Virus record (IMG/VR): IMGVR_UViG_3300045016_000151
Coordinates: 82,078 to 146,077 of that record
Direction: 5' to 3' (one strand)
Source of the DNA: a virus
Lineage: Duplodnaviria; Heunggongvirae; Uroviricota; Caudoviricetes
Length of the DNA stretch: 64,000 nt
Both the position numbers and the translations under genes were made by a program. Below are positions 27,764 to 54,555 of this stretch, piece after piece. Each line of letters begins with the position of its first letter. Within the stretch, counting starts at the first letter, position 1. Below the pieces are notes generated by a model that searched no databases, was not told the DNA's origin, and saw only the letters and a list, made by a program, of their open reading frames with translations.

Positions 27764-27836
27764 GGCGCTATCGTCTAGTTGGTTAGGACACGACTCTTTC
27801 AAGGTCAAAAGGCCGGTTCAATCCCGGCTAGCGCTA
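27764..27836 (+). tRNA. tRNA-Glu(TTC)
   Basis: Full cloverleaf. Confidence 0.85.
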
Positions 27837-27839
27837 CTA

Positions 27840-28055
27840 ATGAAACAGAAAGAACCGAATTTCATAGCTCCGAAGTTTAAATGTACTTGCGGACAAAAAT
27901 TAAAAGCAACAGACCCCGAAGCATTCTTTAATACTGCATATACATATATTTATAAATGTCCGGTTTGTGGAATAAAGTGGATAGTAACCTGCGAAGAATC
28001 TGGAAATGATTATGAAAATGGTATTAATCTTTTGACAGGTGTTATAGAAGAATAA
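27840..28055 (+). CDS. zinc-ribbon small protein
   Basis: CTCG and CPVCG; ATG 3 nt after tRNA. Confidence 0.6.
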   Translation: MKQKEPNFIAPKFKCTCGQKLKATDPEAFFNTAYTYIYKCPVCGIKWIVTCEESGNDYENGINLLTGVIEE

Positions 28056-28060
28056 TATTA

Positions 28061-28357
28061 ATGTATTTACAAGATGAAGAACTTCAAAAATGGATTTCAC
28101 AAAAAACAGGGCTTGCTTTTGACTCAATAAGTGAAATCGATTTATTACAAATTATACATAAAAAACATTGGAATTGCTATGTAAGTACGATAGGATATGC
28201 CAGCGAGGCGCGGGTTGATGTTGCACATCTTTATTCTTTATTAATGGATCCTAGACAATATTATTATCGTATTTTAACCTGTACGGGCGTACAAATTTGT
28301 CATTATAATAAATTATTTCCATGTTTGGTACATGGTGCAATTGGGGCGTTAGTGTAA
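28061..28357 (+). CDS. hypothetical protein; stop inside tRNA-Asp
   Basis: ORF. Confidence 0.5.
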   Translation: MYLQDEELQKWISQKTGLAFDSISEIDLLQIIHKKHWNCYVSTIGYASEARVDVAHLYSLLMDPRQYYYRILTCTGVQICHYNKLFPCLVHGAIGALV

Positions 28358-28416
28358 TTGGTTAACACGCCTGCCTGTCACGCAGAAGAGTACGGATTCG
28401 AGTTCCGTACGCCCCG
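28343..28416 (+). tRNA. tRNA-Asp(GTC)
   Basis: Full cloverleaf. Confidence 0.9.
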
Positions 28417-28417
28417 C

Positions 28418-28651
28418 ATGAAACACAACAGAGACAAAGATGAATTAAAGGTTTTAAAACGTAAAAGAGTTTGGGATAGATTTAAGTGGTGGTATAATAA
28501 TCAAACGAATAGGTTGTTTAAAAATCATTGGTTGAAAGATAGTTGTAGTATGTGTAAATATGAACAAGCTATCAAATATCGCGAACATACTATACAACGC
28601 AGAAAAGATAAAAAAGTCATTAATGAACAATTAAATGACATGGAGACATAG
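28418..28651 (+). CDS. basic hypothetical protein; stop inside tRNA-Phe
   Basis: ATG 1 nt after tRNA-Asp. Confidence 0.5.
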   Translation: MKHNRDKDELKVLKRKRVWDRFKWWYNNQTNRLFKNHWLKDSCSMCKYEQAIKYREHTIQRRKDKKVINEQLNDMET

Positions 28652-28715
28652 CTCAGTCGGTAGAGCTCTAGGCTGAAGACCTGGGTATGCACTGGTTCGA
28701 TTCCGGTTGTCTCCA
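28642..28715 (+). tRNA. tRNA-Phe(GAA)
   Basis: Full cloverleaf. Confidence 0.9.
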
Positions 28716-28722
28716 CAATAAA

Positions 28723-28797
28723 CGACGCGTAGCTAAATTGGTGACGGCAGCCGCCTTATACACGGAAGATATGTGGGTTCAAGTCCTACCGCGTCGA
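28723..28797 (+). tRNA. tRNA-Ile(TAT)
   Basis: Cloverleaf; anticodon stem with two mismatches. Confidence 0.7.
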
Positions 28798-28815
28798 CTA
28801 AAAAATACAATAAAT

Positions 28816-28887
28816 TCAGCAGTAACTCAACGGTAGAGTGCCTGGCTGTTAACCAGGATGTTGAAGGTTCGAGCCCTTCCTGCTGAG
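28816..28887 (+). tRNA. tRNA-Asn(GTT)
   Basis: Full cloverleaf. Confidence 0.9.
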
Positions 28888-28890
28888 CTA

Positions 28891-29022
28891 GCGGGTCGAT
28901 AGATGTTAGTTATCGGTTAAAGCATATATCTCAAAAATATAACACTCTAGGTTCAAGTCCTAGCGCGTATGAAAATACGTAGTAGCTAAATTAAAAACAC
29001 TGACGTCGCTTAAATTACCCGC
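28891..29022 (+). ncRNA. YrlA-type Y RNA candidate 1
   Basis: Terminal helix GCGGGT(C)GAT/ATTACCCGC with bulged C; T arm, then closed acceptor-like hairpin (GAAA loop), then degenerate D loop. Confidence 0.6.
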
Positions 29023-29027
29023 GATAT

Positions 29028-29110
29028 GTATCTGTTGAGCAACTGGCTGGCTCGCCTGACTGTAGATCAGGTCCCCTTTGGGCGTGGGGGTTCGAATCCC
29101 TCCAGATACA
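29028..29110 (+). tRNA. tRNA-Tyr(GTA)
   Basis: Class II cloverleaf. Confidence 0.9.
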
Positions 29111-29112
29111 CT

Positions 29113-29187
29113 GTGGCCGTAGGACAATTGGCTTAGTCCGACAGGTTGTGGCCCTGTACGTTATGGGTTCGAATCCCATCGGTCACC
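29113..29187 (+). tRNA. tRNA-His(GTG), no encoded G-1
   Basis: Cloverleaf, C73; base -1 is T. Confidence 0.9.
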
Positions 29188-29244
29188 TACATTCCCCTTG
29201 TGTCCCTGAAGAAATTCAAACCTTGGGTAGAAAGGAAAAACATC

Positions 29245-30166: not shown

Positions 30167-30241
30167 GGGAGATTAGCTCAGCTGGTTTAGAGCGTCGGTC
30201 CTACAAACCGAAGGTCCACGGTTCGATCCCGTGATCTCCCA
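30167..30241 (+). tRNA. tRNA-Val(TAC), C33
   Basis: Cloverleaf, loop CC-TAC-AA. Confidence 0.9.
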
Positions 30242-30246
30242 CACAT

Positions 30247-30729
30247 ATGGAAAAGACAGACAATACAATCACTGTCGATATGCGCAAACATTTTAGCAGG
30301 CGTCTTCGAGAGGCTGCTAATAAAAAACTTGCTTCCATAAAGCAAGAGTACGGCGATCTCGACAAACACATGTACGATTATAAGGATGAACGGGACACGG
30401 CTGCTTTATTACCATTAATCCTAAGCAAAGAAATTACGGTTGCGGATATAGATATATCCAAACTAATCAATCCTTTAAAAGAAGCCATAGATGAAATTTA
30501 TTCTCCAAGTATCGATATCCTCGATCTTTTCGGTTCCACGGCATCGGCAAAAATAAGTAAACAAGGAAAGCAGTTACTACTTAAACATAAGGCGGCATTA
30601 GCTGAATGTGCAAAACGTGAAAATGCCGTCGAGAAGGAAATAGCCCGTATTGAGGATAAATTATTTTTTGGTGGAAGCGGAAAATCATTATTAAAGCTTC
30701 TAAAAGAGTTCATTGCAAAAAAGTTTTAA
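30247..30729 (+). CDS. hypothetical protein
   Basis: ATG 5 nt after tRNA-Val. Confidence 0.65.
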   Translation: MEKTDNTITVDMRKHFSRRLREAANKKLASIKQEYGDLDKHMYDYKDERDTAALLPLILSKEITVADIDISKLINPLKEAIDEIYSPSIDILDLFGSTASAKISKQGKQLLLKHKAALAECAKRENAVEKEIARIEDKLFFGGSGKSLLKLLKEFIAKKF

Positions 30730-30763
30730 ATAACAACCGACAACATCATTGATGTTGTCTTAC

Positions 30764-31727: not shown

Positions 31728-31802
31728 CGGAATATGGGCCAATTGGTAGGCCACCAGTTTCGGGAACTGGACATCGTGTGGGTTCAAGCCCCACTATTCC
31801 GA
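31728..31802 (+). tRNA. tRNA-Pro(CGG)
   Basis: Cloverleaf. Confidence 0.85.
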
Positions 31803-31805
31803 CAA

Positions 31806-32018
31806 ATGCCAAAACAATACAAGATATTGACAAGCCGAGGTATACATTTATCGTTTAGAAAAGGCATACTTGCGGGAAATAGGAAATTAAAAATTTACGG
31901 AACATTAGATTGTTATAGCGGCAAACGTATGAAAAAAAAGAATCGAGTATTTTTTCTTACAGAACTAGATGCATTACAATGTAGTTATCGCCCCTGTAAA
32001 ATTTGTATGTATAAATGA
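31806..32018 (+). CDS. Ada metal-binding-domain small protein
   Basis: C.SGKR....NRVFF.....A....YRPC..C. Confidence 0.7.
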   Translation: MPKQYKILTSRGIHLSFRKGILAGNRKLKIYGTLDCYSGKRMKKKNRVFFLTELDALQCSYRPCKICMYK

Positions 32019-32224
32019 ATTATTATAAACAAGTAAAAATACAATATGATGATGGTGCATTTGAAATATGTTGGATACCTGAAGAATTTGCACACAAGCA
32101 TCGCCGAATTATAGTAGATGATAAATATGCTAGAGTATTAATAATCTATATGGACATTCGTTTGACTGAAGATCTTATTGAAATAAATCAAAAATTTCCG
32201 TTACGGAAAGCAACCGATATATGA
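32015..32224 (+). CDS. hypothetical protein
   Basis: ATGA-coupled. Confidence 0.5.
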   Translation: MNYYKQVKIQYDDGAFEICWIPEEFAHKHRRIIVDDKYARVLIIYMDIRLTEDLIEINQKFPLRKATDI

Positions 32225-32829
32225 AACAATATCCAGAAATTCCTAAAGATGTGCCATCTTTTAATGCACACGTGTTCGATAAAATAGATGGTAGTAACTT
32301 ACGTTTTGAATACAGCAAAAAACGTGGTTGGTTTAAATTCGGTACGCGCACAAGATTATTTGACCAATCAGATGACGTATTTGGATCAGCAGTTCCTTTA
32401 TTTCACGAAACGTTGTTATTCCCGCTTACCCAAATTATGATTGATAACCGATTTGAACATGCGGTAGTGTTTGCAGAATTTGCTGGGAAAAGAAGTTTTG
32501 CTGGACAACATGAAAAAGATGATGTGAAGACACTGACGGTGTTTGATGTGGCCTTAGATAAAAAAGGATTCGTATCTCCTAAGATGTTCATAAAATTATT
32601 TGACGGTAAAGTACTGATACCAAAATATCTTGGATATTATCGCTGGAATAAAGAATTTACCACTAAGATCTATTATAATGAAATAGAAGGAATCACTTTT
32701 GAAGGAGTCGTCGGCAAAGATGGGGAGGGGACGCACTACAATATGGCAAAAGCTAAGACATTGCAGTGGTTAAATAAAGTACATGCTTTATATTCAGATA
32801 ATCTAGCAGATAAGATAATAAATAGTTAA
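32221..32829 (+). CDS. ATP-dependent RNA ligase (Rnl2-like adenylyltransferase domain)
   Basis: Motif I KIDGSN, FAEF, VFDV, EGVV, K.K. Confidence 0.7.
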   Translation: MKQYPEIPKDVPSFNAHVFDKIDGSNLRFEYSKKRGWFKFGTRTRLFDQSDDVFGSAVPLFHETLLFPLTQIMIDNRFEHAVVFAEFAGKRSFAGQHEKDDVKTLTVFDVALDKKGFVSPKMFIKLFDGKVLIPKYLGYYRWNKEFTTKIYYNEIEGITFEGVVGKDGEGTHYNMAKAKTLQWLNKVHALYSDNLADKIINS

Positions 32830-33389
32830 TGGAACAACTAATCTGCGGTAAAAACCATAAGAAGATCGGGGTAACTCCTTCGATCGTACTAATTAATCCT
32901 AAATATCCAAGAAACGTTGGCGCAATAATACGTGCTGCATCTTGTTTTGGTATAGCCCAGGTTTGGTACACCGGCAATCGTGTATCAATGACACCAACAA
33001 AAGATTATCGTTTACCAAGAGAAGAACGGATGAAGGGTTATAAAGAAGTTACACTCACACAATTTGATTATCCGTTTGATATGTTTGAAAAAGCAATTCC
33101 TATTGCAATTGAAGTGCGAGAAAACTCTGAAAACTTATTAGACTTTGAACATCCATATAATGCAGTGTATGTTTTTGGTCCAGAAGATGGTGGTATTGAA
33201 CGAGTACATATGCAACACTGCCATCGAATTGTCACTATACCCACGAAACATTGCACAAACTTGGCAGCGGCTGTTTATCTTACTTTATATGATAGATATG
33301 CCAAACGAGTACGTGCAGGAAAAGATCAAATATTCAATATAGGAAAAAATGAACAACGAGGTTATGAAGAAGGGGCTGAATTTGGATGA
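32829..33389 (+). CDS. SpoU/TrmH-family RNA methyltransferase
   Basis: NPKYPRNVGAIIR, VFGPEDGGI, TNLAAAV SPOUT motifs. Confidence 0.85.
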   Translation: MEQLICGKNHKKIGVTPSIVLINPKYPRNVGAIIRAASCFGIAQVWYTGNRVSMTPTKDYRLPREERMKGYKEVTLTQFDYPFDMFEKAIPIAIEVRENSENLLDFEHPYNAVYVFGPEDGGIERVHMQHCHRIVTIPTKHCTNLAAAVYLTLYDRYAKRVRAGKDQIFNIGKNEQRGYEEGAEFG

Positions 33390-33871
33390 TACCAAAAGAA
33401 ATTGAATATAAATTTTTGTTCTTTGATGAGAATGTTGTGCTTCCACAGCTGGCTCAAGCTAGTAAATCAATAAAATTAATGCAGGGTTATACAATAGATG
33501 GGATTAGGTTTACTCAACGAGTACATGAAGATAATACAAAAGATTATAAAATAAATTATAAATTAGGAATGGGTGTAGTTCGGGACGAAGCACAATGTCA
33601 AATAGATGAAAATGTGTTTATTGCAATTTGGCCCTTAACAATTGGTCGACGTGTTTACAAAACACGTTATCACTTTCCACTGGAATCTGGTCTTATATTA
33701 GAATTAGATGTATATCAACATTCGAGGAAATGGCCATTGATCACTGGAGAAATAGAGTTTGCTACGGAAGAGGAAGCAGATAATTACTCAGACACTGAAT
33801 TGGGGCGCTTCGGCAGTTTTTTATATGTAACTGGCGACTCTGAGTATCTGAATATAAACTTAGCCTGTTAA
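33386..33871 (+). CDS. CYTH-domain protein
   Basis: EIEYK, KTRY, ELDVY, EIEF. Confidence 0.8.
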   Translation: MIPKEIEYKFLFFDENVVLPQLAQASKSIKLMQGYTIDGIRFTQRVHEDNTKDYKINYKLGMGVVRDEAQCQIDENVFIAIWPLTIGRRVYKTRYHFPLESGLILELDVYQHSRKWPLITGEIEFATEEEADNYSDTELGRFGSFLYVTGDSEYLNINLAC

Positions 33872-33953: not shown

Positions 33954-33996
33954 CAAGATGCCCCTTAGCGTATTTTCATTCATAAGGAGAAAATAT

Positions 33997-34449
33997 ATGC
34001 TACCTATTTTAAAAAGAGACTTTGCCTCTGATATAGAATATTGGCTTAATGATATTAGAAAAGCCTTTGAGGAGGCAGCAAATTTGGAACTATGTTTTGA
34101 ACCTATTGGTCGAGCATTTCCAAAAGTAAACATTTCCGAAACAGACAAGGAATTTGTCATAGAAGCGGCTTTGCCTGGTTATGGAAAAGATCAAATTAAA
34201 TTAGAAGTTACAAATGATAAAGGAAGAAAGTTTCTTACTGTAAAAGGTGAGAAATCTGGGAAGGCTTCTAAGAAAGATACACGTTATCTTGCTCAAGAAG
34301 TACATTTTTCCTCGTTTCATCGTTCCTGGGCGCTTCCAGCCGATGTAGATGTAGATGCCATCAAAACTAATATGGATAGTGGAGTTCTTACTATCGAACT
34401 TCCAAAAACAAGTCCAAGCATCGACAAAAAAGAAATAACTATTAGCTAA
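33997..34449 (+). CDS. Hsp20 small heat-shock protein
   Basis: P.VNI.ET, LPG, F.RS..LP..VD, GVLTI.LPK. Confidence 0.9.
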   Translation: MLPILKRDFASDIEYWLNDIRKAFEEAANLELCFEPIGRAFPKVNISETDKEFVIEAALPGYGKDQIKLEVTNDKGRKFLTVKGEKSGKASKKDTRYLAQEVHFSSFHRSWALPADVDVDAIKTNMDSGVLTIELPKTSPSIDKKEITIS

Positions 34450-36255: not shown

Positions 36256-36329
36256 CGGCATCTAGCTCAACTGGTTAGAGCATTGGTCTGATAAGCCAAA
36301 GGTTCTGGGTTCAACCCCCAGGGTGCCGA
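36256..36329 (+). tRNA. tRNA-Ile(GAT)
   Basis: Cloverleaf. Confidence 0.9.
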
Positions 36330-36331
36330 CG

Positions 36332-36550
36332 ATGAAAGCAAAAATCACATGGAGTATGGACGTTTATAAAGATCTCGACAAATTTGTAGACAGGTCCGCA
36401 AAAAATATTACGGACGAAATAGACAAAGCCTTTGTTAACATAATTACACGAGAATATTACAAAACAAATCCATTAGTATTTAAATTAAGTTACAGAACAA
36501 CCTCTTTACAAGAATTCTTGAAAAGCAGCACTCGTAGCAAAACTGGATAA
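36332..36550 (+). CDS. hypothetical protein; stop inside tRNA-Lys
   Basis: ATG 2 nt after tRNA-Ile. Confidence 0.5.
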   Translation: MKAKITWSMDVYKDLDKFVDRSAKNITDEIDKAFVNIITREYYKTNPLVFKLSYRTTSLQEFLKSSTRSKTG

Positions 36551-36751: not shown

Positions 36752-36994
36752 ATGCTAGAACAATATAAACAAGAGGTGCGCAAGTATTTAACTTGGTGCT
36801 ATAATTTAAAAGTTTCATATGGCTGGAATCCAGCATCAAAACTTGAATTCGATCAGTTCGAATTAAGTCCAAGAGATTATTTAATACTCCTTGAAAAAAA
36901 TGCTTATCTAAAAGGTATGGAAGCATTATTGAATCTTAATAACATAGATATTAAAAAAATATATGCAGAAGTAGAATTATCCGGGGGATGGTGA
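36752..36994 (+). CDS. hypothetical protein; stop inside tRNA-Leu
   Basis: ORF. Confidence 0.5.
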   Translation: MLEQYKQEVRKYLTWCYNLKVSYGWNPASKLEFDQFELSPRDYLILLEKNAYLKGMEALLNLNNIDIKKIYAEVELSGGW

Positions 36995-37332: not shown

Positions 37333-37356
37333 CGACTGGTGGGAGTAATCCCACCT

Positions 37357-37437: not shown

Positions 37438-37439
37438 CT

Positions 37440-37969: not shown

Positions 37970-37971
37970 CT

Positions 37972-44420: not shown

Positions 44421-44422
44421 CT

Positions 44423-44907: not shown

Positions 44908-45131
44908 GATCCATCGTTTTTCATTTTCCAACTGAATTACCATATAATGCAATCAGATATGAATTAAAATGTGATTGGGGTTTGTATTACAAATGTCGCA
45001 CACAACAAGAATTTGAACAATTAGATCCGCACCTGATAATACAAGAAGGTTGTTTGATTCAGGCAATAGGTATTGATGATAATGTTATTGCAAACTGGCA
45101 CTATGAGAAGAACAAATGGATAAAAAATTAG
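44904..45131 (+). CDS. hypothetical protein
   Basis: ATGA-coupled. Confidence 0.5.
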   Translation: MRSIVFHFPTELPYNAIRYELKCDWGLYYKCRTQQEFEQLDPHLIIQEGCLIQAIGIDDNVIANWHYEKNKWIKN

Positions 45132-45562: not shown

Positions 45563-46053
45563 AAGACGATATCGATTTACCATTGGTAAAAACCATTGCT
45601 TATTTAAACTTATTAGGTATCAAAACACTTTGGTCGTGTTGCGGATATAATTATCCTGAACAACCTGCGCATAAGGCGCACCAAATCGGTCAAATAAATA
45701 TTTCAATGGAATTTTCTGATAAGGCGGCCTCAGTCGGTATTTATATTTTACAACTTAATTATGAATGGGCTTTAAAATGTCAATTAGTGAATCCTGCTCC
45801 ATTACGAGCATATATTATATATAGTGACATTAAAAGATTTCATCCTAATTGGGATGAAAACTCCGTACATTATCATGAGCATCCTTCACAGATGATTAAT
45901 GGGTTGGAAAAGCGTTTGTATAAACTAAAGGATCAATTTATGGATGAAGTAGTATTAACTGATACAAACCACGCATCAAAACAAGCAAATCCCTATTGGG
46001 CTTATCCAGGGAGTGATCCATGGGTTATACGAAAAAATGATTTTATTTGTTGA
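45550..46053 (+). CDS. hypothetical protein
   Basis: I.T..SCCG.. motif seen in phage proteins. Confidence 0.55.
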   Translation: MSNLKDDIDLPLVKTIAYLNLLGIKTLWSCCGYNYPEQPAHKAHQIGQINISMEFSDKAASVGIYILQLNYEWALKCQLVNPAPLRAYIIYSDIKRFHPNWDENSVHYHEHPSQMINGLEKRLYKLKDQFMDEVVLTDTNHASKQANPYWAYPGSDPWVIRKNDFIC

Positions 46054-46384
46054 TGATGAAAAACAACCGGAGTGGTTTGATTTAAACCGCACCAATATTC
46101 ATGTAGCCACAACATTTGAAGATGCGTTGAAATTAATTCAGAAAAATGTATATGACATTATTTACATGGATCATGATCTTGGAGATAGTTGTCATGATGG
46201 TTCTCATTTAATAACCGAATATGGCAAAGCAGGTAAGTCAATACAAAAAGTTTGTTGTATTTCGTGGAATCCACTTGGAGTAGAACGAATACGACTTGCT
46301 TGTAAAGATTTTAATATACCTTTCGAATCACATGGTATGCGTATATTTGATTTGTTTCCAGTTATAGATGGACAATCTCACTAA
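46037..46384 (+). CDS. cyclic-phosphate-processing receiver-like domain protein
   Basis: LFVDDEK.P, ALKLI, IYMDHDLG, S.NP.G..RI. Confidence 0.7.
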   Translation: MILFVDDEKQPEWFDLNRTNIHVATTFEDALKLIQKNVYDIIYMDHDLGDSCHDGSHLITEYGKAGKSIQKVCCISWNPLGVERIRLACKDFNIPFESHGMRIFDLFPVIDGQSH

Positions 46385-46413
46385 ATTTTCAACTTTTATA
46401 AAGGATCACATAT

Positions 46414-46770
46414 ATGAAAACATATTTTAATAAGATCAAATTATTTAAAAGTAATTCTGACAGCCCGGAAAAAATATTAAAAGAAGTAACTGAATTTGCA
46501 GCTACTCAAAATATTTCGGCACATAGCTTAGGTGTGGAATATGTAGAACCCCTTGATCAACTAATTATCAGTTTGGGATACAGAGAAGAAGACGATCCCA
46601 CATCGATAGAAATAATTCAACATACTATCGGAAATATATCAACCAACAGTTTGGCTGAGCTGGAGAGTAACTTTAAAAAGATACTTGATACTTTTGAAAA
46701 ACCTATCTGTCATGAATTTTTCGTAAATAACGCTTTCGATCTTATCGGAATCTTTATGATAGAAAAGTAA
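46414..46770 (+). CDS. hypothetical protein
   Basis: AAGGA SD. Confidence 0.6.
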   Translation: MKTYFNKIKLFKSNSDSPEKILKEVTEFAATQNISAHSLGVEYVEPLDQLIISLGYREEDDPTSIEIIQHTIGNISTNSLAELESNFKKILDTFEKPICHEFFVNNAFDLIGIFMIEK

Positions 46771-46777: not shown

Positions 46778-46851
46778 GCGGTTGTCGCATAGAGGCCTAG
46801 TGCGTCTGCTTGCCATGCAGAATCTCGTGGGTTCGAATCCCATCAACCGCT
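46778..46851 (+). tRNA. tRNA-Gly(GCC)
   Basis: Cloverleaf. Confidence 0.88.
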
Positions 46852-46853
46852 CT

Positions 46854-47312
46854 ATGGTTCAAATAATATATGTATTTCTCGCAGCATTTGTGCTCGGCTT
46901 TTTATATTCATATTATATACGACGCACAGCACATGCGCAAACTTTAAAAAAACAACTACAAGCGGCAAGCTCCGGTTCAGTATTATATTTGCTTGGCGCG
47001 GTAATTGTTATATCATATGTAAGTGACCCTTGGCTATTAATTCCCGCCTGTGTGGGGGATTGGCTAGGATCCCTACTACAACTAAGGATCGATATGAATA
47101 AAGAACAATACGAAGAAAACTTAAGACGAATCCAAAAACAACATTTGGAAAATATTCAAAAACATACACATTGGCAGCCATGCATGCACGACCAATGTAC
47201 AGAATGTCATGGTACTGGTATGAAACTAGATGGGACTCCCTGTGTACACGGTATAAGTTGCCCATGCCCAAAATGTAGTCCACGATGTAACACCTCCACC
47301 CTCGTAACTTAA
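46854..47312 (+). CDS. membrane protein with C-terminal Cys-rich domain; stop inside tRNA-Arg
   Basis: Hydrophobic helices then CTECHGTG..CPCPKC. Confidence 0.55.
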   Translation: MVQIIYVFLAAFVLGFLYSYYIRRTAHAQTLKKQLQAASSGSVLYLLGAVIVISYVSDPWLLIPACVGDWLGSLLQLRIDMNKEQYEENLRRIQKQHLENIQKHTHWQPCMHDQCTECHGTGMKLDGTPCVHGISCPCPKCSPRCNTSTLVT

Positions 47313-47372: not shown

Positions 47373-47375
47373 CAT

Positions 47376-47449
47376 GCTCCTATAGCTCAATTGGATAGAG
47401 CGCTTCGCTACGAACGAAGAGGTTGTAGGTTCAAGTCCTATTAGGAGTA
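47376..47449 (+). tRNA. tRNA-Arg(ACG)
   Basis: Cloverleaf. Confidence 0.9.
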
Positions 47450-47451
47450 CT

Positions 47452-48015
47452 ATGATAGCACAATTACTATTTCAAATACTACAGTTTATAGCTATTTCAC
47501 TTTTTGACTTGTGGCAAATGGCTAAAAAAGAATTATTATATTGGGAAGCAATAATGGATACATTACCGTTTTTACCTCCCGACGTTGAAGAAGATACATT
47601 AATACTAAAAAACACTGCATCAGAGAATATATCTGTGGGCCAATTTATATTTTGGTTTGCTGAAGTCGCATTAATGTTAATATTCTGGAGTGGTTATACA
47701 TTTGTATCGCTTGTAATGTTTCTATGTACGGTATTTTTATTCTATGCGGGGGTTGAAGACTTAATGTTCTTTTTGTTTTCTCGTTGGATAAAATTACCGG
47801 AAAGTTGGTGGCGCTCTCGAGAAGTTATTCACATTCTAGGATTTCGTTTACCAAAATATATGCCTTGGTTACCAAGAACGCGCCAAATCGGAAAGTTAAA
47901 AATACCTAGTTATTGGATGAAATTTTTCGGCGGAGAGGTTGGTGATACCGTTGAATTATATAAAGGTGGAATTATTGCTTGGATATTAGTTATTGCTATA
48001 ATAAGTTTGGTATAA
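47452..48015 (+). CDS. membrane protein
   Basis: Several hydrophobic segments; ATG 2 nt after tRNA. Confidence 0.6.
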   Translation: MIAQLLFQILQFIAISLFDLWQMAKKELLYWEAIMDTLPFLPPDVEEDTLILKNTASENISVGQFIFWFAEVALMLIFWSGYTFVSLVMFLCTVFLFYAGVEDLMFFLFSRWIKLPESWWRSREVIHILGFRLPKYMPWLPRTRQIGKLKIPSYWMKFFGGEVGDTVELYKGGIIAWILVIAIISLV

Positions 48016-48024
48016 GATAATTAT

Positions 48025-48098
48025 ACCCCTATAGTCTAATTGGATAAAACGTCGCGCTTCGGACGCGAATAGTGCGGGTTCGAGTCCTGCTGGGGGTA
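48025..48098 (+). tRNA. tRNA-Arg(TCG)
   Basis: Cloverleaf. Confidence 0.88.
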
Positions 48099-48099
48099 C

Positions 48100-48456
48100 A
48101 TGTTTAAGGCATATGAACAAATAGAATTAGCAGTTATTACTACCGCTGCTATAAAAAAATTATTCTTTGACGATTACTCAACTCTCACTTTCACAATCAA
48201 ACCTATGGAACAACATATAACAGATATAGAAAATTTTATACACAATGCTACAACAGACAAATGTGTAGAATTGTTAAGGACGTTGTCCAAAGATATAGAA
48301 CTTGCTATTAAACCGGACGCCATACATGTTAAACTGAGGGCGTTGGCGCTAGAAATGGATTTAGAAGATTACCGAAAATTATTATTAACACAGTTACTCA
48401 ATTCAATGGCCGCCGTAAAAAGCAAATTACATACTAATTTGGGAATTAAAGAATGA
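48100..48456 (+). CDS. hypothetical protein
   Basis: ATG 1 nt after tRNA. Confidence 0.6.
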   Translation: MFKAYEQIELAVITTAAIKKLFFDDYSTLTFTIKPMEQHITDIENFIHNATTDKCVELLRTLSKDIELAIKPDAIHVKLRALALEMDLEDYRKLLLTQLLNSMAAVKSKLHTNLGIKE

Positions 48457-48635
48457 GAAAAATAACAGTAGAAAAAGCAGATAATACCAGACATTGTCAT
48501 AAATGTCAAGCAAAGATAATAAAAAATGAAAAATTTGTACTTTGCACTAATGATGCTTATATACCTGTTTATTGTAATATTTGTTCAATTTGTATGACAA
48601 ATCTAACTAATAAGGTGCTCGGATTAAAAAATTAA
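48453..48635 (+). CDS. small Cys-rich protein
   Basis: CHKC...CNICSIC. Confidence 0.5.
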   Translation: MRKITVEKADNTRHCHKCQAKIIKNEKFVLCTNDAYIPVYCNICSICMTNLTNKVLGLKN

Positions 48636-48637
48636 CT

Positions 48638-49852
48638 TTGTACCAAAAAAGCAAAACAGGAAAAATTAAAGTATTAGAATTCTGGACTGTAAAAGAAAAA
48701 TTCTATACTCGTTGGGGGCAATTAAACGGTAAACAGCAAGAAACTGTGAAGGTATGTGTGGGAATGAATATCGGTAAAGCTAATGAAACTACACCTGCAG
48801 AGCAGGCATTGGCAGAGATGGAAGCCAAGATCGTAATTAAGAAAAAAGAAGGTTACGATACAAAGATGCCTTCAGTTACCTCATCAATAGTGCAAACTGT
48901 TATTGATCTGGATAATATACCAGAAGCATTTTGTCCTAATAAACCTATATCTAAAACACCACAATCAATTATTGATGGTAAAAATACGTATGGACAAAGA
49001 AAATTCGATGGGCATTGCTTATTCTTGGTTAAAGGCAAAACTACCGAAAAAGTATTTTCACGTCGTATGGAAGATCGTACAGACGTATTAATACAGTTAC
49101 CGCCTATAAAAAAATTATTGGCTATACTACCAAGTGAAACGTTTTTATTAACCGAATTTATATATTATAACAACACAACAAAACGTGAATCGCCTAGACA
49201 TGTAGCGCAGGTTGTTCGTAAAGATGATGCTGCGGAGGCTATATCGCGTTATAACGAGTTATCAAAAGATGGACAATTCAACTGTATCCCCTTCGATGTC
49301 CTATTCTTCAAAGGAGATTTTGTCGGAAATAGAGAATATACTAAACGATTCGAATTACTCAAATCTATCAATATCAACGTGCCCCCCATATACACAGATT
49401 GGAAGGAGCTACTTCAATTTGCCGAAGAAGAAAATTGGGAGGGTTTTGTCCTTCGTGTGCCAGGTGAGAAATCATATATCTCTTATACAATGGATGGAGA
49501 AGCACATCGAGCGGGAAGTTATAAATACAAATTTCTCAAAACTGATGACTTTTTTGTCACAGAATGGCTTAAGGGAAAATCCGGAAAACACGCCAATTTT
49601 TATGCGAAGTTTGCTGTGGCACAATACGACTCCAAAGGCACCATTATCGATCGTGGATATGTCGGCCCTGGTAAACTAACTCACGATGAACTAGCACAAC
49701 TTACAAAGGATCTAAATTCTGGTAAAGTAAAAAAGAACTTTGTAATCGAAGCTGAATATCAGGATATTCAAGATTCTGGAAAATTACAGTTTGGAATAAT
49801 TCAGCGACTACGACCAGATAAAATACACACAGAATGCGTGGTTGAAGAATGA
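48638..49852 (+). CDS. ATP-dependent DNA ligase with N-terminal WGR-like domain
   Basis: TRWGQLNGK, KFDG motif I, FDVL, EGFVLR, YKYKF, C-terminal OB fold. Confidence 0.8.
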   Translation: MYQKSKTGKIKVLEFWTVKEKFYTRWGQLNGKQQETVKVCVGMNIGKANETTPAEQALAEMEAKIVIKKKEGYDTKMPSVTSSIVQTVIDLDNIPEAFCPNKPISKTPQSIIDGKNTYGQRKFDGHCLFLVKGKTTEKVFSRRMEDRTDVLIQLPPIKKLLAILPSETFLLTEFIYYNNTTKRESPRHVAQVVRKDDAAEAISRYNELSKDGQFNCIPFDVLFFKGDFVGNREYTKRFELLKSININVPPIYTDWKELLQFAEEENWEGFVLRVPGEKSYISYTMDGEAHRAGSYKYKFLKTDDFFVTEWLKGKSGKHANFYAKFAVAQYDSKGTIIDRGYVGPGKLTHDELAQLTKDLNSGKVKKNFVIEAEYQDIQDSGKLQFGIIQRLRPDKIHTECVVEE

Positions 49853-50012
49853 ATGGAAAACGAGCTAAGGCTTTGCGTAAGAAAGCCTATAAAATAACAA
49901 AAGATGCGCCTTGGGTAGAATATTACGATAAAAAATCAGTTCCATTAGTAATGAAACCCACTTGCACAAGAAAAGTGTATCAACTATTGAAAGCCAAATA
50001 ATTGGCTTTCTT

Positions 50013-50099
50013 GGAGAGTGTCCGGTTTGGTCGAGGAACCAATCTTGAAAATTGCGCGCGGCATTATGTCCGTCTGGGGTTCGAATCCCTAACTCTCCG
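50013..50099 (+). tRNA. tRNA-Ser(TGA)
   Basis: Class II cloverleaf; hairpin 49990-50010 upstream. Confidence 0.85.
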
Positions 50100-50103: not shown

Positions 50104-50192
50104 GGAAAGTCTGACCTCATTGGTGCGGGGCCTGGTCTCGAAAACCAGTAGGCGTGTAGTGCGCCATAGGAGTTCGAATCTCCTACTTTCCG
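50104..50192 (+). tRNA. tRNA-Ser(CGA)
   Basis: Class II cloverleaf. Confidence 0.85.
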
Positions 50193-50193
50193 C

Positions 50194-50508
50194 ATGAGAC
50201 AATATCTTATTATAAAAACTAAAACAAATGGTATAGTGGCAATAGTAGCCTCGGAAAATAATGTATTACGTGTAGTATTTGCATATACTAATAATTTAAG
50301 AATTGCGTTGGAAGAGACTATTAAACATGGTCTACATAAAAGAAGATTCGTCACGAAAACTAAATTGATAACTATTAATGCATCACCAAAAGACGCCGAC
50401 TTTTTGAAAAAGCTAAAACAATATTTAATATTGTCGTTTGATTATGACGTAAAATTAATGGAGATAAAAAATGAACATATACAGCATGACGACAGAAAAC
50501 ATGACTGA
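50194..50508 (+). CDS. hypothetical protein
   Basis: ATG 1 nt after tRNA. Confidence 0.55.
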   Translation: MRQYLIIKTKTNGIVAIVASENNVLRVVFAYTNNLRIALEETIKHGLHKRRFVTKTKLITINASPKDADFLKKLKQYLILSFDYDVKLMEIKNEHIQHDDRKHD

Positions 50509-50716
50509 GTTTGCAAACCAAGTAAAGGAAGTGCTTGTTAACAATCTATTAGAAAATAAAGTTATAACTAAAGAACAACATGCACTCGTATCAGAAGATT
50601 ATTGTGTAGTAGTTACACCTAAAGACATATTAGGACGAGTTTTTGATAAAGTACGAAATCGGAAAGATACAGAAAAGCTACTAATAACTGTTTTAAAAGG
50701 ACAGCATGTAAAATGA
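50471..50716 (+). CDS. hypothetical protein
   Basis: GGAG SD. Confidence 0.55.
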   Translation: MNIYSMTTENMTEFANQVKEVLVNNLLENKVITKEQHALVSEDYCVVVTPKDILGRVFDKVRNRKDTEKLLITVLKGQHVK

Positions 50717-50925
50717 GTACATTGTTGGCTACATTTCATAAACCAATAAATTGTCGGGCGATAAATCCAAAATTCCAGGACGAAGAATCTGCAAAAGTGA
50801 TTGCAATACAAACAGAAACGGGCACCGACAAAAATGGTACATTAAATATTTATACTTCATATTTAGTAGTATTTCATAATATGAATTTGTGGATGGATAG
50901 CATAGAAGTTAAACTGCAACCTTAA
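50713..50925 (+). CDS. hypothetical protein
   Basis: ATGA-coupled. Confidence 0.5.
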   Translation: MSTLLATFHKPINCRAINPKFQDEESAKVIAIQTETGTDKNGTLNIYTSYLVVFHNMNLWMDSIEVKLQP

Positions 50926-51043: not shown

Positions 51044-51583
51044 ATGGAAAGCAAAAGATTGTTATTTCAACGTGAAATAGAAACATCTATCAACGATATT
51101 CGGGATTACAGTGATTTTATATTTGCAGTTGGTTTGGATATAAAGGAACTCACACCAGAGGTGTTGAAACTAGATATTATACCAACAATGATAATTTCAA
51201 CATCCGCGTTTAACGCATTGGCCAAAATGAATATCCCAAAAGATTTTCTGGATAAATTAAAACAGGCTTCAATGTATACTTGTCCTTGGACTGAAAATAC
51301 GTATTTCGGTACATTACCGATAGCAGTGGCAACATTTAATAAAAACAATTATAAAGACTTATTAACGGATTATCAATTAGACACCGAATTTCATCTCAGT
51401 ATGAATGGCGGCGATGTTAAGAAATTACTTATTCCAAACCTTGTAGAATTATCATTTATAGGGCATGGTTATACGTCTGCAACACTTCCCAGCGATGGTT
51501 CCCATACACTAGTACTTTGTACGATTGAATTACCTAATAAAGATTTTGCTATCTGTTTAACTTATGCATGGCACAACAAATGA
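51044..51583 (+). CDS. hypothetical protein
   Basis: AAGG SD. Confidence 0.65.
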   Translation: MESKRLLFQREIETSINDIRDYSDFIFAVGLDIKELTPEVLKLDIIPTMIISTSAFNALAKMNIPKDFLDKLKQASMYTCPWTENTYFGTLPIAVATFNKNNYKDLLTDYQLDTEFHLSMNGGDVKKLLIPNLVELSFIGHGYTSATLPSDGSHTLVLCTIELPNKDFAICLTYAWHNK

Positions 51584-52281
51584 TCAGAATATTTCAAGTT
51601 GGTGGTAGTGTTAGAGATTTAATATTACGCGTTAAGTCAAAAGATATTGATTATGCAGTAGTAGCAGTTTCTTGGGAAGAAATGAGAAATTATATTCTTG
51701 CCAAAGGCAAAATATATCTCGAGACCCCAGAATACTTCACTATCCGTGCTCATATAGATGGTTTTGGTGATGCTGATTTTGTGTTATGTCGAAAGGATGG
51801 TAACTATTCAGACGGTCGTAGACCTGATACTGTTGAGTTGGGCACATTGTATGACGATCTAGCCAGACGTGATTTCACAATGAATGCTATTGCGATCGAC
51901 ATGCAAGATCCAAAGCGTCCTTTTATTGACCCGCATGGTGGGTTGATTGACATACAAAATAATCTCATTAAATGTGTTGGTAAGCCCGAAGATCGCTTCA
52001 ATGAAGATGCTTTACGCATGCTACGCGCGTTAAGATTTGCCGTAACCAAAAAAATGCAGATCGACTTATCAGTAGAAGCATGTTTTGGTAATCGTGAGTT
52101 ATTAAACAAATTGAATAATCGTATTTCTTGGGAACGTAAAAAAGACGAATTGTTTAAAATGTTCAAAACAAGTACAACACGAACTTTTGAATTGTTTGAT
52201 CGATACCCATCAATGCGCGACGTATTACTTTCTGATGACAAACCTTTGTGGCTTGAACCAACTTTACGAGCACGCCCATGA
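51580..52281 (+). CDS. short tRNA nucleotidyltransferase (CCA/poly(A) polymerase family)
   Basis: VGGSVRD, DID, DLARRDFTMNA, EDALRMLRALRF; no HD domain. Confidence 0.88.
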   Translation: MIRIFQVGGSVRDLILRVKSKDIDYAVVAVSWEEMRNYILAKGKIYLETPEYFTIRAHIDGFGDADFVLCRKDGNYSDGRRPDTVELGTLYDDLARRDFTMNAIAIDMQDPKRPFIDPHGGLIDIQNNLIKCVGKPEDRFNEDALRMLRALRFAVTKKMQIDLSVEACFGNRELLNKLNNRISWERKKDELFKMFKTSTTRTFELFDRYPSMRDVLLSDDKPLWLEPTLRARP

Positions 52282-52844: not shown

Positions 52845-52848
52845 TTAT

Positions 52849-52922
52849 AGAGCTATCGTACAATTGGTTTAGTACACAAGACTTTGGATCTTGGAATCGG
52901 AGTTCGAATCTCTGTAGCTCTG
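52849..52922 (+). tRNA. tRNA-Gln(TTG)
   Basis: Cloverleaf. Confidence 0.88.
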
Positions 52923-52929
52923 CATTTTT

Positions 52930-53002
52930 TGGGATGTAGTTCAATTGGTGGAACGTCAGTCTCTGGAACTGAATGATAAAGGTTCGAGTCCTTTCATCCC
53001 AG
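52930..53002 (+). tRNA. tRNA-Gln(CTG)
   Basis: Cloverleaf. Confidence 0.88.
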
Positions 53003-53005
53003 CGT

Positions 53006-53293
53006 ATGAAACAAATTTTATATTATGAAATGGACTACATGGAATTTGATAAATTAGTTAATAAACATATTCCAGCGTTTAAAGGTGATTACGAATTTGT
53101 GGCCTGTCATGAAGCAAATAATTATGCAGCATATACTTTTAATGTTGAAATGCCTAAAGATGACAAGTCATATTTAGATATTGAGCGTAAAATCCTATTA
53201 GGAGAAGATCGATATACGCGTTATATATTAATGTATTTGGTAAAACTCGGTGTACTGGCGCCAGGAAATTATTTAATAAACGTATTTTGGTAA
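53006..53293 (+). CDS. hypothetical protein
   Basis: ATG 3 nt after tRNA. Confidence 0.55.
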   Translation: MKQILYYEMDYMEFDKLVNKHIPAFKGDYEFVACHEANNYAAYTFNVEMPKDDKSYLDIERKILLGEDRYTRYILMYLVKLGVLAPGNYLINVFW

Positions 53294-53295
53294 TT

Positions 53296-53370
53296 GCAAA
53301 AGATCGTCTAATATGAATAAGACAGCGGAGTACATCCGCTAAATAGTAGATTCAAAACCTACCTTTTGCT
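53296..53370 (+). pseudogene. degenerate tRNA-like element
   Basis: Acceptor GCAAAAG/CTTTTGC, D and T arms present; anticodon arm AGCGGA-GTACA-TCCGCT lacks a U33 loop. Confidence 0.6.
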
Positions 53371-53372
53371 TC

Positions 53373-53546
53373 ATGTATAATTTTAAACGTGGTGATAAGG
53401 TTGTAGATATATTAGACGGTCAGAAAGGCATTGTTATGCGTTATGCTTCTGAAGACCGTGATAATTATACTTATGTACAAGTAAGATGGGAAAATGGTGA
53501 TACAACAATAATAAGAGAAATGGAATTAGTATATGATAAACACTAA
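53373..53546 (+). CDS. small SH3-like hypothetical protein (57 aa; not in track)
   Basis: FKRGDKV....G..G.V...V.V.W; ATG 2 nt after tRNA-like element. Confidence 0.55.
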   Translation: MYNFKRGDKVVDILDGQKGIVMRYASEDRDNYTYVQVRWENGDTTIIREMELVYDKH

Positions 53547-53820
53547 ACAATCCTGCGGCGAAGCAAAGGCTACAAACATAATGGAAGGTAGTTTGTATAA
53601 ACTGCAGACATTACAAGATGAAACACAGGCAATAATTAACACGATCGCAGAAAAAACCGAGTCAATTCGGCAACAATTGCCGAAGGAAGCTATATTGGAT
53701 ATGGGATGCAATAAAGGTATAAATACTTCAAAAATACAAAATATACTACAAGATCGTATTAGTCAACAAGATCTTATCGTAAAATTATTGCAGGAATTAC
53801 TTTCAGAGTTAATTATATAA
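53533..53820 (+). CDS. coiled-coil hypothetical protein
   Basis: ORF. Confidence 0.5.
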   Translation: MINTKQSCGEAKATNIMEGSLYKLQTLQDETQAIINTIAEKTESIRQQLPKEAILDMGCNKGINTSKIQNILQDRISQQDLIVKLLQELLSELII

Positions 53821-53826
53821 TACAAT

Positions 53827-54049
53827 ACATAGAATACGAGTATAGACGAACTGGAAAATTTCTCGTAGCGTAGAGTCACTCCATAACGCCCAGATATACA
53901 CGGAATCTGGGGTCGCGGTCAAAGCCCTAAATGCAATGCATACCTGAGTCCAGTTAGGCTGTAATTAGATAATGGTTATAATTACAATTGACAGGCCAAT
54001 AGGGAGGAGAAAACCTTTTCACGGTGACATCGGAAATCCGTGACTATGT
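53827..54049 (+). ncRNA. unclassified pseudoknotted RNA candidate (about 220 nt)
   Basis: ACATAG/CTATGT ends; TACGAG/CTCGTA; AACTGGA/TCCAGTT; CCCAGAT/ATCTGGG; TGTAATTA/TAATTACA; TCACGG/CCGTGA. Confidence 0.55.
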
Positions 54050-54051
54050 GT

Positions 54052-54123
54052 GCCGGCTTAGCTCAGCGGTAGAGCAGGGCACCTGTAATGCTCAGGTCGG
54101 GGGTTCAAATCCCTCAGTCGGCT
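54052..54123 (+). tRNA. tRNA-Thr(TGT), C33
   Basis: Cloverleaf, loop CC-TGT-AA. Confidence 0.88.
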
Positions 54124-54145
54124 CAGAAAAATATACAATTGTATA

Positions 54146-54218
54146 GCCAGCTTAGCTCAATTGGTGGAGCAGTGCTTTCGTAAAGCAAAGGTCAAGAGTT
54201 CGACTCTCTTAGTTGGCT
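54146..54218 (+). tRNA. tRNA-Thr(CGT)
   Basis: Cloverleaf. Confidence 0.88.
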
Positions 54219-54222
54219 CGTT

Positions 54223-54555
54223 ATGAAATTCCACATACCAAAAGAAAACATACCTTATCGTATTATGCGAGATATTGAAATAGAATTAGTGGGTCTTGAT
54301 AGTGATAGTCGAAAGAAAATGCAGACGCGTGGATTTCAAGAGACATTTCACACTGATCCTTTTTACTTACATGCGAAAGATATAATAAAAATCACTACTT
54401 GGAGCAATAAACAGGAATATGTGAAGATTCGTATATTATCCTCTAGTGATAAACTATATGAAAAATTATGTGGATATGTTCGAGATCCTTCGAATGATCC
54501 AAGTTCAACATTTGACTTTTTAAATGATGTTGAAATAGAAGAAATTCCGGTATAA
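54223..54555 (+). CDS. hypothetical protein
   Basis: ATG 4 nt after tRNA. Confidence 0.6.
   Translation: MKFHIPKENIPYRIMRDIEIELVGLDSDSRKKMQTRGFQETFHTDPFYLHAKDIIKITTWSNKQEYVKIRILSSSDKLYEKLCGYVRDPSNDPSSTFDFLNDVEIEEIPV

Follow-up and report, generated by a model that had tools for sequence, protein, structure and literature searches.

How are protein genes expressed whose start codons lie only one to five nucleotides behind a tRNA gene? This question is raised by a 64,000-nt stretch of DNA (hereafter the window; 37% G+C) that covers positions 82078-146077 of the 215,016-bp virus record IMGVR_UViG_3300045016_000151, a tailed phage of the Caudoviricetes whose record was rated complete by CheckV, and in which almost all genes of the window beyond about 12 kb lie on the + strand. 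An earlier note, made from the letters of the window alone, had listed 17 open reading frames (ORFs) that start directly after tRNAs, and had proposed that excision of the tRNAs releases leaderless mRNAs. We found that this layout occurs far more often than expected by chance and recurs with a sharp geometry and different genes in related phages, and on this evidence we cautiously favour excision as its explanation.

Of the 38 tRNA genes that ARAGORN located in the genome, 35 lie in the window, and Rfam added two further ones (28899-28971 and 50012-50099); the placement by the two programs agreed exactly with the positions given by the earlier reader. A tRNA called by ARAGORN ends here at C74 and one called by Rfam at the discriminator base N73. 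All 17 listed positions proved to be ATG codons opening ORFs of 57-187 aa, 0-4 nt past C74 and hence 1-5 nt past N73, as had been claimed. The chance of such an ATG within 5 nt of a random position in the 27-58 kb region was 0.024, corresponding to about 0.9 expected cases, against 17 observed for 38 tRNAs (p = 7e-18). Measured from C74, the offset was 0 at 28418, 48100 and 50194; 1 at 36332, 37440, 37972, 42376, 44423, 46854, 47452 and 53373; 2 at 27840, 31806 and 53006; 3 at 38371 and 54223; and 4 at 30247. In the list of these junctions given below, spurious ORFs are out-of-frame ORFs within long genes, which served as the reference for coding scores, and names beginning with L denote related loci.

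27764-28055, + strand: tRNA-Glu(ttc) 27764-27837, spacer TA, ATG 27840 (71 aa); coding score 0.318, exceeding all spurious ORFs.
28343-28651, + strand: tRNA-Asp 28343-28417, ATG 28418 abutting C74 (77 aa), stop within tRNA-Phe; from tRNA call and coding score.
30167-30729, + strand: tRNA-Val 30167-30242, spacer ACAT, ATG 30247 (160 aa); from tRNA call and coding score.
31728-33871, + strand: tRNA-Pro(cgg) 31728-31803, spacer AA, ATG 31806 (Ada zinc-binding domain) and four overlapping ORFs; from domain match and segment map.
36256-36550, + strand: tRNA-Ile(gat) 36256-36330, spacer G, ATG 36332 (72 aa), stop within tRNA-Lys(ttt); from tRNA call and coding score.
37357-37883, + strand: tRNA-Leu(cag) 37357-37438, spacer T, ATG 37440, dCMP deaminase (147 aa); PF00383, L006 homologue aligned from residue 1.
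37890-38157, + strand: tRNA-Leu(caa) 37890-37970, spacer T, ATG 37972 (61 aa); intermediate coding score.
38287-38853, + strand: tRNA-Leu(tag) 38287-38367, spacer ACT, ATG 38371 (160 aa); coding score, L001 homologue aligned from residue 6.
42302-42627, + strand: tRNA-Trp 42302-42374, spacer T, ATG 42376 (83 aa), doubtful gene crossing tRNA-Cys; low coding score.
44347-46770, + strand: tRNA-Gly(tcc) 44347-44421, spacer T, ATG 44423 (83 aa) and six mostly overlapping ORFs; from coding score and segment map.
46778-47312, + strand: tRNA-Gly(gcc) 46778-46852, spacer T, ATG 46854 (152 aa, hydrophobic), stop 15 nt into tRNA-Arg(cct); L006 and L008 junctions, phrog_17149.
47376-48015, + strand: tRNA-Arg(acg) 47376-47450, spacer T, ATG 47452 (187 aa); from tRNA call and coding score.
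48025-50001, + strand: tRNA-Arg(tcg) 48025-48099, ATG 48100 abutting C74 (118 aa), followed by coupled ORFs; four ORFs including an ATP-dependent DNA ligase at 48638-49852.
50104-50925, + strand: tRNA-Ser(cga) 50104-50193, ATG 50194 abutting C74 (104 aa) and two overlapping ORFs; chain ending 7 nt before tRNA-Leu(gag).
52930-53293, + strand: tRNA-Gln(ctg) 52930-53003, spacer GT, ATG 53006 (95 aa); from tRNA call and coding score.
53296-53546, + strand: tRNA-like cloverleaf 53296-53369, spacer TTC, ATG 53373 (57 aa); 6-bp 'anticodon' stem, 5-nt loop, z = -4.2.
54146-54555, + strand: tRNA-Thr(cgt) 54146-54219, spacer GTT, ATG 54223 (110 aa); tRNA, protein and 3-nt offset identical in L008.

The element upstream of 53373 is thus a tRNA-like cloverleaf that is non-canonical as a tRNA.

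At least 14 of the 17 flush ORFs look like genuine genes. The codon usage of 12 exceeded that of 97% of the spurious ORFs; the Pfam PF00383 alignment of the dCMP deaminase at 37440 begins with residue 1 at profile position 1; and the product of 31806 carries an Ada zinc-binding domain. ORF 46854, which scores low because its product is hydrophobic, matched phrog_17149 and is conserved from residue 1 with the same junction in L006 and L008. Coding scores were intermediate for 37972 and 44423, and 42376 is doubtful because it crosses tRNA-Cys, its coding score also being low. Translation from internal starts, a possibility that the earlier note had itself raised against its proposal, was checked as well: among the in-frame alternative starts within 40 codons of the 17 flush ATGs, none with a Shine-Dalgarno sequence was found, and for five of the ORFs the first 30 codons contain no alternative start. 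Outside that list, the flush ATG 33958 after tRNA-Arg(tct) was rejected as the start of an HSP20 gene (33958-34449), as the L006 homologue aligns to ATG 33997, which has the Shine-Dalgarno sequence AAGGAG; the gene most likely starts at 33997.

In order to compare the tRNA-to-ATG spacing among related phages, as had been suggested, relatives were fetched as 20-kb stretches using NAPRTase and DNA ligase as anchors, with ligase identities of 50-80%. An ORF of at least 50 aa whose ATG lies 0-4 nt past C74 was counted as flush, which gave the following numbers.

Whole genome (G000): 18 flush of 38 tRNAs.
L006: 9 flush of 19 tRNAs.
L008: 5 flush of 14 tRNAs.
L009: 6 flush of 18 tRNAs.
L010: 7 flush of 16 tRNAs.
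L012: 5 flush of 16 tRNAs.
L011 (more distant): 2 flush of 27 tRNAs.
L013 (more distant): 0 flush of 4 tRNAs.

The flush class therefore recurs in the closer relatives, those at 69-80% ligase identity having 5-9 flush tRNAs per 20-kb locus. The order of the tRNAs is largely kept among the relatives, and the ORF content between conserved syntenic tRNAs varies. Clustering reduced the 52 flush ORFs to 47 protein clusters, and there were 48 independent pairings of tRNA with protein; the layout has accordingly arisen many times, with different genes. Orthologues alternate between flush-after-tRNA and overlapping-gene contexts: in the window a 186-aa ORF begins at 32829 within an overlapping junction, and its L006 counterpart stands behind tRNA-Val as C-T-ATG; the ligase of L010 has its start 3 nt past tRNA-His; and in L009 and L012 the genes found to begin 1 nt past a tRNA are those of an IMPDH-like enzyme, a 5'-nucleotidase and a response regulator. 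An HNH-like protein was seen after tRNA-Leu(taa) in L006 (5649-6101) and after tRNA-His in L012 (9440-9874), with a TT spacer in both, and a mobile endonuclease gene thus seems to insert flush against tRNAs. Searches through individual ORFs gave five loci for 38371, none of them with tRNAs, and no relatives for 47452. No close DNA relative was found among isolated phages, the ligase protein gave only weak partial matches in Vibrio and Pseudoalteromonas phages, and a metagenome scan with the ligase alignment gave no match.

The geometry of the junctions was sharp across this clade. Among the 48 independent junctions, the offset was 0 in 3, 1 in 30, 2 in 5, 3 in 8 and 4 in 2, an excess of offset 1 over what an even distribution across 0-4 would give (p = 1.7e-10). 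The single spacer base was T in 26 of the 30 offset-1 junctions, so that N73-C74-U-AUG is found in 26 of the 48, whereas position 75 of tRNAs without a flush ORF shows no preference for T (A in 35, T in 29; Fisher p = 2.6e-5). The junction consensus is thus N73-C74-U75-A76-U-G, which puts the A of the AUG into the A76 slot of CCA. The start codon was ATG in 52 of 52 flush ORFs, and C stood at position 74 in 152 of 152 tRNA genes (the genome with L006 and L008-L013). C75 was rare, being present in 6 of 121 tRNAs of the genome and its closer relatives, and A76 was frequent, in 80% of tRNAs with a flush ORF and 58% of those without. These observations supported the view that the junction geometry is under selection across the clade; what is established is how the junctions are built, their statistics, and that they are conserved and arose repeatedly and independently.

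The tRNA 3' ends as a whole resemble CCA lacking only the middle C. No tRNA gene of this genome encodes CCA, and the complete triplet is encoded by few tRNAs, in relatives only; in the tRNA-Trp of L006 the A of CCA doubles as the A of ATG. A C74-ATG without a long ORF was also observed, as a 13-codon ORF after tRNA-Thr(ggt) (39082-39123), as ATG-TAA after tRNA-Cys (42612-42617), and at 47374-47376, where it uses the first G of the next tRNA. Across the clade there were 8 such cases against about 2.6 expected, and they may be relics of lost junctions or an independent processing signal. The tRNA set further includes an amber suppressor with anticodon CTA (57077-57151), which is also present in L008, L010 and L012.

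Chance spacing in a compact genome had been named at the outset as an alternative to be weighed. Neighbouring genes on the same strand lay a median of 1 nt apart, overlaps of 1 or 4 nt being frequent, and since a compact genome yields equally tight gene-gene spacing, tightness alone is not special; the sharp offset, U75 and a dichotomy in Shine-Dalgarno use go beyond what compaction gives. Shine-Dalgarno use in this phage was moderate, with a G peak at -8; a Shine-Dalgarno-like sequence, defined by a pairing energy of -4.4 kcal/mol or better, preceded 37% of first starts, compared with 14% of internal ATGs. Such a sequence was present at only 35-57% of the other genes and at about 35% of tightly packed gene-gene junctions. 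The claim that flush starts leave no room for one was correct insofar as only 3 of the 17 had one, lying within the acceptor stem. As evidence this is weak, because most genes here are without one, and the difference from tight gene-gene junctions was not significant (3 of 17 against about 35%).

The dichotomy became apparent when starts behind tRNAs were compared with each other. In the flush class of the clade (0-4 nt past C74, n = 52), Shine-Dalgarno-like sequences occurred at 15%, which equals the background of 14%, whereas the spaced class (7-70 nt past a tRNA, n = 50) had them at 58% (Fisher p = 1e-5). Nearly all ATG starts with spacers of 11-50 nt show a visible Shine-Dalgarno sequence such as GAGGAG, AAAGGAG or TAAGGAG. 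The two classes are separated by a gap, with no start at offsets 5-6, four at 7-8, and 46 of the 50 spaced starts at 11 nt or more. Because no ribosome comes from upstream, initiation past a tRNA must be de novo, and the phage seems to provide for it either by an ordinary leader or by a flush junction. Phage T5, which likewise has its tRNAs dispersed between small ORFs and was used as a control, has the spaced class only, all 13 of its tRNA-to-CDS spacings being 13-34 nt.

The flush junctions are part of a repeated unit, which consists of a tRNA, 0-4 nt, an AUG, a run of between one and seven ORFs, most of which overlap by 1-4 nt, a stop, 0-10 nt, with a perfect hairpin at three places, and the next tRNA. 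For instance, the five ORFs of 31806-33871 overlap by 4, 4, 1 and 4 nt and the last ends 8 nt before tRNA-Arg(tct), and the chain of 44423-46770 stops 7 nt short of tRNA-Gly(gcc). The expression of entire gene chains would thus depend on the first AUG beside the tRNA. At 11 sites the stop of the upstream ORF precedes the tRNA by 0-10 nt, and at six it falls within the tRNA.

As the gap between a tRNA and its flush ORF is too short to hold a promoter, it is a near-forced inference that the two are co-transcribed. A scan of 27-47 kb with the sigma-70 consensus gave no enrichment of promoters over shuffles, and terminator-like sites were only slightly in excess (18 on both strands, against 12.4 in shuffles). 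One candidate promoter was recognized.

48009-48017, + strand: candidate promoter motif GGTATAAGA, 7 nt before tRNA-Arg(tcg).

This is the one exact copy of GGTATAAGA inside 27-54 kb, and a transcript from it would begin approximately at the mature 5' end of tRNA-Arg(tcg), making the tRNA the leader of the ligase message. The motif was also seen directly after tRNA-Arg(acg) in L006 and after tRNA-Thr(cgt) in L009.

On the 5' side of the tRNAs, three hairpins were confirmed where they had been described, each in the lowest 0.1% of 30-nt windows.

30739-30759, + strand: perfect hairpin of 9 bp whose end lies 4 nt upstream of tRNA-Pro(tgg), no U tract; -11.4 kcal/mol.
37338-37355, + strand: hairpin of 7 bp and a GUAA loop, 1 nt upstream of tRNA-Leu(cag); -13.4 kcal/mol.
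49989-50010, + strand: hairpin of 9 bp whose end lies 1 nt upstream of the tRNA-Ser-like gene 50012-50099; -11.9 kcal/mol.

The hairpin before tRNA-Leu(cag) is kept in L006 through compensatory changes (GGTGGGA/TCCCACC versus GTGGAGGA/TCCTCCAC). Across the clade, 14 of 128 upstream 32-mers carried a hairpin 1-5 nt before the tRNA that fell in the lowest 2%, against 2.6 expected (p = 3e-7); the enrichment is confined to this extreme tail, as the upstream windows of tRNAs overall were no more structured (Mann-Whitney p 0.28). The window hairpins have no U tract, and a few of those in relatives have one and could be terminators. The placement and the clade-wide enrichment agree with the suggestion that such hairpins protect new 3' ends, although only a minority of junctions carries one.

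As to the enzymes, the earlier note had placed RNase P RNA at the 5' side and had considered the metallo-beta-lactamase (MBL)-fold protein at 17930 as a possible nuclease for the 3' side. Neither assignment held for the phage itself. No phage-encoded RNase P RNA was found in the genome. The only MBL-fold protein of the phage (17930-18679, 249 aa) reached 38.6 bits with the RNase Z model TIGR02651, whose cut-off is 292.95, the HxHxDH region alone being aligned; its best family was phrog_392 ('metal-dependent hydrolase'), a large and widespread phage family, and its homologues bear PF23023 (Apyc1) and the JGI name phosphoribosyl 1,2-cyclic phosphodiesterase. Short-form RNase Z has about 300 aa, and the protein is shorter than that. 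It was rejected as an RNase Z in view of the score far below the model cut-off and its PhnP/Apyc1-like phosphodiesterase family, and a phosphodiesterase acting on cyclic nucleotides or cyclic phosphates is a likelier identity for it than a tRNA nuclease; orthology with the Apyc1-annotated MBL protein of L009 was rejected as well. With no phage RNase P RNA and an MBL protein that is not RNase Z, both cuts would be left to the host.

The tRNA genes themselves show features that bear on such cuts. The base at -1 is mostly T, and the short (1-3 nt) tRNA-tRNA spacers end in T or AT. Bacterial RNase P prefers U at -1, with which the T at this position agrees. The invariant C74 is likewise in agreement with the pairing of C74 to the L15 contact of bacterial RNase P RNA (PMC1874595), and U75 could form a wobble pair with the second G of the same RNase P RNA loop. 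For a cut after C74, the cut mapped within CCA in Streptomyces coelicolor offers a model (PMC4681348). Alternatively, E. coli precursors are cut by an RNase E-type activity a few bases past the acceptor end (PMC2190699), and such a cut could fall directly before the AUG. The phage encodes a tRNA nucleotidyltransferase (51568-52281, + strand) with the head domain only (PF01743, 2.7e-20; phrog_2244 and phrog_24229), which stays below the cut-offs of the NCBIfam CCA models because the body and tail domains are missing; it is conserved in all relatives and likely completes CCA on the CCA-less tRNAs.

Taken together, we consider it somewhat more probable than its negation that the tRNAs are excised from multi-gene precursors and that the downstream piece, bearing a 5'-phosphate, is translated in a leaderless manner; from the sequence we infer that tRNA and ORF are co-transcribed, that the two cuts are made and by which enzymes, and that initiation is leaderless. 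The tRNA region would be transcribed as long multi-gene RNAs in which the tRNAs act as punctuation. Host RNase P would cut at the tRNA 5' end, with the hairpin, where present, guarding the new 3' end of the upstream message, and a host endonuclease of RNase Z type or RNase E type would cut on the 3' side between N73 and the A of AUG. An RNase Z-type cut yields a 5'-phosphate. The downstream RNA would then keep a 5'-phosphate and a leader of 0-5 nt, its first AUG would be used in a leaderless manner, the genes behind it would be translated by coupling, and the phage nucleotidyltransferase would finish the CCA of the excised tRNA. Leaderless initiation requires a 5'-phosphate, has a strong preference for AUG in E. 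coli and Caulobacter, and is hampered by structure close by and by distance from the 5' end (PMC9031893). The hallmarks visible in the sequence are in good agreement with this, as AUG is used in 52 of 52 cases and Shine-Dalgarno sequences are at background.

Several points weigh against this interpretation. About 60% of the phage genes are without a recognizable Shine-Dalgarno sequence anyway, and the gene-gene spacing is as tight as that behind the tRNAs. RNAs with a 5'-monophosphate are usually unstable in bacteria. The CCA block of RNase Z is said to act mainly through the first C (reportedly from Pellegrini and coworkers in 2003), and since C74 is universal here, the canonical RNase Z cut after N73 is doubtful. 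An encoded CCA blocks Bacillus RNase Z (PMC1874595). The commonest geometry would leave 1-2 nt before the AUG, and in E. coli leaderless translation declines as the AUG moves away from the 5' end (PMC9031893). Furthermore, six upstream ORFs stop 2-23 nt inside the next tRNA, at 28357, 28651, 36550, 36994, 38288 and 47312 (the tRNA parts up to these stops being 28343-28357, 28642-28651, 36528-36550, 36982-36994, 38287-38288 and 47298-47312). An RNase P cut would turn these six into non-stop messages, which suggests that some translation takes place on unprocessed RNA or that rescue is needed. The earlier proposal that tRNA excision releases leaderless mRNAs was accordingly upheld in its layout, in the reality of its ORFs and in the selected geometry, and it is weakened by its enzyme assignments and by the non-stop ORFs.

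In this connection, a tmRNA-like RNA was observed at 54627-54966 (RF00023, 37.4 bits against a gathering score of 47, E 1.5e-13; acceptor ends unaligned), the tag of which, read by eye, would have about 24 residues that start with AEEK and end with VAVMA instead of the usual ALAA. It might be a candidate rescuer of non-stop messages arising from tRNA excision. Relatives also encode translation-related proteins, namely an IF3 homologue (L013:6573-6995), a Thg1 tRNA-His guanylyltransferase (L012:4919-5677), a PTH2-like peptidyl-tRNA hydrolase (L012:19489-19791) and a peptide deformylase (L013:14466-14999). IF3 is reported to counteract leaderless initiation.

Of the competing explanations, the one that survives best is that the tRNA serves as a 5' leader, the ORFs being translated from unprocessed tRNA-ORF RNA, for instance during transcription and ahead of tRNA excision, so that maturation and translation compete. 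The six upstream ORFs would need intact RNA of this kind to reach their stops inside the next tRNA, and the motif at 48009 would make tRNA-Arg(tcg) the literal leader of the 48100-50001 message. A folded tRNA 1-5 nt away would, however, occupy the mRNA path of the ribosome, and either kind of initiation suffers from structure beside the start codon (PMC9031893); moreover, the near-complete and well-scoring tRNA set implies that most precursors must be cut. Genes at 11 nt or more, mostly with a Shine-Dalgarno sequence (58% of the spaced class), point to ordinary 30S loading wherever room is given. We therefore hold this explanation to be unlikely, though worth serious attention. The same grade applies to its corollary that N73-C-U-AUG reflects the tolerance of the ribosome beside the acceptor stem or needs of RNase P at positions 74-76; C74, the frequent A76 and the avoided C75 do resemble an RNase P recognition tail (PMC1874595).

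An improbable second alternative is that the layout is a by-product of compaction and shuffling, with conserved tRNAs as anchors for recombination against which new ORFs, homing-endonuclease-like ones included, come to lie flush; the geometry of the junctions would in that case reflect the joining of cassettes and not their expression. The equally tight gene-gene spacing (median 1 nt), the different ORFs between conserved syntenic tRNAs of relatives and the HNH-like protein found with a TT spacer after two different tRNAs in L006 and L012 are all in keeping with it. It nevertheless leaves unexplained how the first ORF is translated, as well as the ATG-only rule, the U75 preference and the near-empty offsets of 5-10, and T5, which is compact and rich in HNH genes, still has spacers of 13-34 nt. 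As an account of origin, shuffling is compatible with tRNA punctuation. Finally, that the flush ATGs are not true starts or the ORFs not genes, with internal or no translation, is very improbable: 42376 with its low score and its crossing of tRNA-Cys, and 33958, outside the original list, where 33997 is preferred for HSP20, speak for it, against gene-like codon usage in 12 of the 17 ORFs, Pfam or PHROG matches and conserved N-termini for three further ones, internal starts without Shine-Dalgarno sequences, and five ORFs with no alternative within 30 codons.

The proposed excision mechanism combines mitochondrial tRNA punctuation with bacterial leaderless initiation. A literature search found no description of phage or bacterial tRNA punctuation, or of processing-made leaderless mRNAs beside tRNAs, and the earlier reader had likewise known of none. 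What is new here is the multi-gene coupled segments, the two-class use of Shine-Dalgarno sequences, the clade-wide hairpin enrichment and the offset-1/U75 rule. Mitochondrial tRNA punctuation reportedly goes back to Ojala, Montoya and Attardi in 1981. In mitochondria, as in the phage, same-strand tRNAs abut protein genes with almost no spacer on both sides, and excision by RNase P and RNase Z defines mRNA ends with little or no leader, which is what we propose for the phage (for mitochondria, see the reviews PMC3790967 and PMC11469412). The A76 of the L006 tRNA-Trp, shared with the AUG, recalls overlapping mitochondrial genes (PMC4787750). The phage differs in its bacterial-type translation, mixed Shine-Dalgarno use, multi-gene coupled segments and retention of C74; its stops are complete or lie inside the next tRNA, whereas mitochondrial ones are finished by polyadenylation, and it is known from sequence alone.

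Known leaderless mRNAs, such as those of lambda cI and Tn1721 tetR and many in Actinobacteria and Deinococcus (PMC9031893, PMC4681348), resemble the phage junctions in having an AUG near the 5' end, no Shine-Dalgarno sequence, a strict AUG and a need for a 5'-phosphate. Their 5' end, however, comes from transcription initiation and bears a triphosphate, whereas that of the phage would be processed, with a monophosphate and usually 1-2 extra bases. The E. coli thrU-tyrU-glyT-thrT-tufB operon is a tRNA-mRNA co-transcript. In such co-transcripts (thrU-tufB, secG-leuU (PMC2241853) and the T5 region), tRNA and protein genes likewise share a transcript, and RNase P and RNase E part the two. In contrast to the phage, their spacers fit a Shine-Dalgarno sequence (13-34 nt in T5), and they have neither a flush class nor the N73-C-U-AUG consensus. 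MazF reportedly generates leaderless mRNAs in E. coli by an endonucleolytic cut just before the AUG, comparable to the cut proposed here (PMC5001579; Vesper et al. 2011, as cited in PMC4681348). Unlike the phage system, it is a stress-induced toxin that cuts at ACA and has no link to tRNAs. The MazF cut leaves a 5'-OH.

A bolder reading, to which we give tentative credence a little short of that for excision itself, is that a clade of jumbo phages expresses its tRNA-rich early and middle region in mitochondrial style, so that excision by the host would be obligatory for making translatable, nearly leaderless messages of several genes, N73-C74-U75-AUG would be a dedicated processing-and-initiation signal with the A of AUG standing in for A76, and hairpins and possibly tmRNA would handle the 3' ends. 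For annotation, gene callers that demand a ribosome-binding site would misplace the starts described here. If the excision mechanism is true, it would be the first case outside organelles in which tRNAs punctuate and activate mRNAs, and a third route to bacterial leaderless mRNAs besides promoters and MazF. Phage tRNA genes would gain a second role as expression punctuation, which may help to explain why the tRNAs of large phages are scattered among small ORFs, and dozens of phage genes would be tied to the RNase P and 3'-processing activity of the host.

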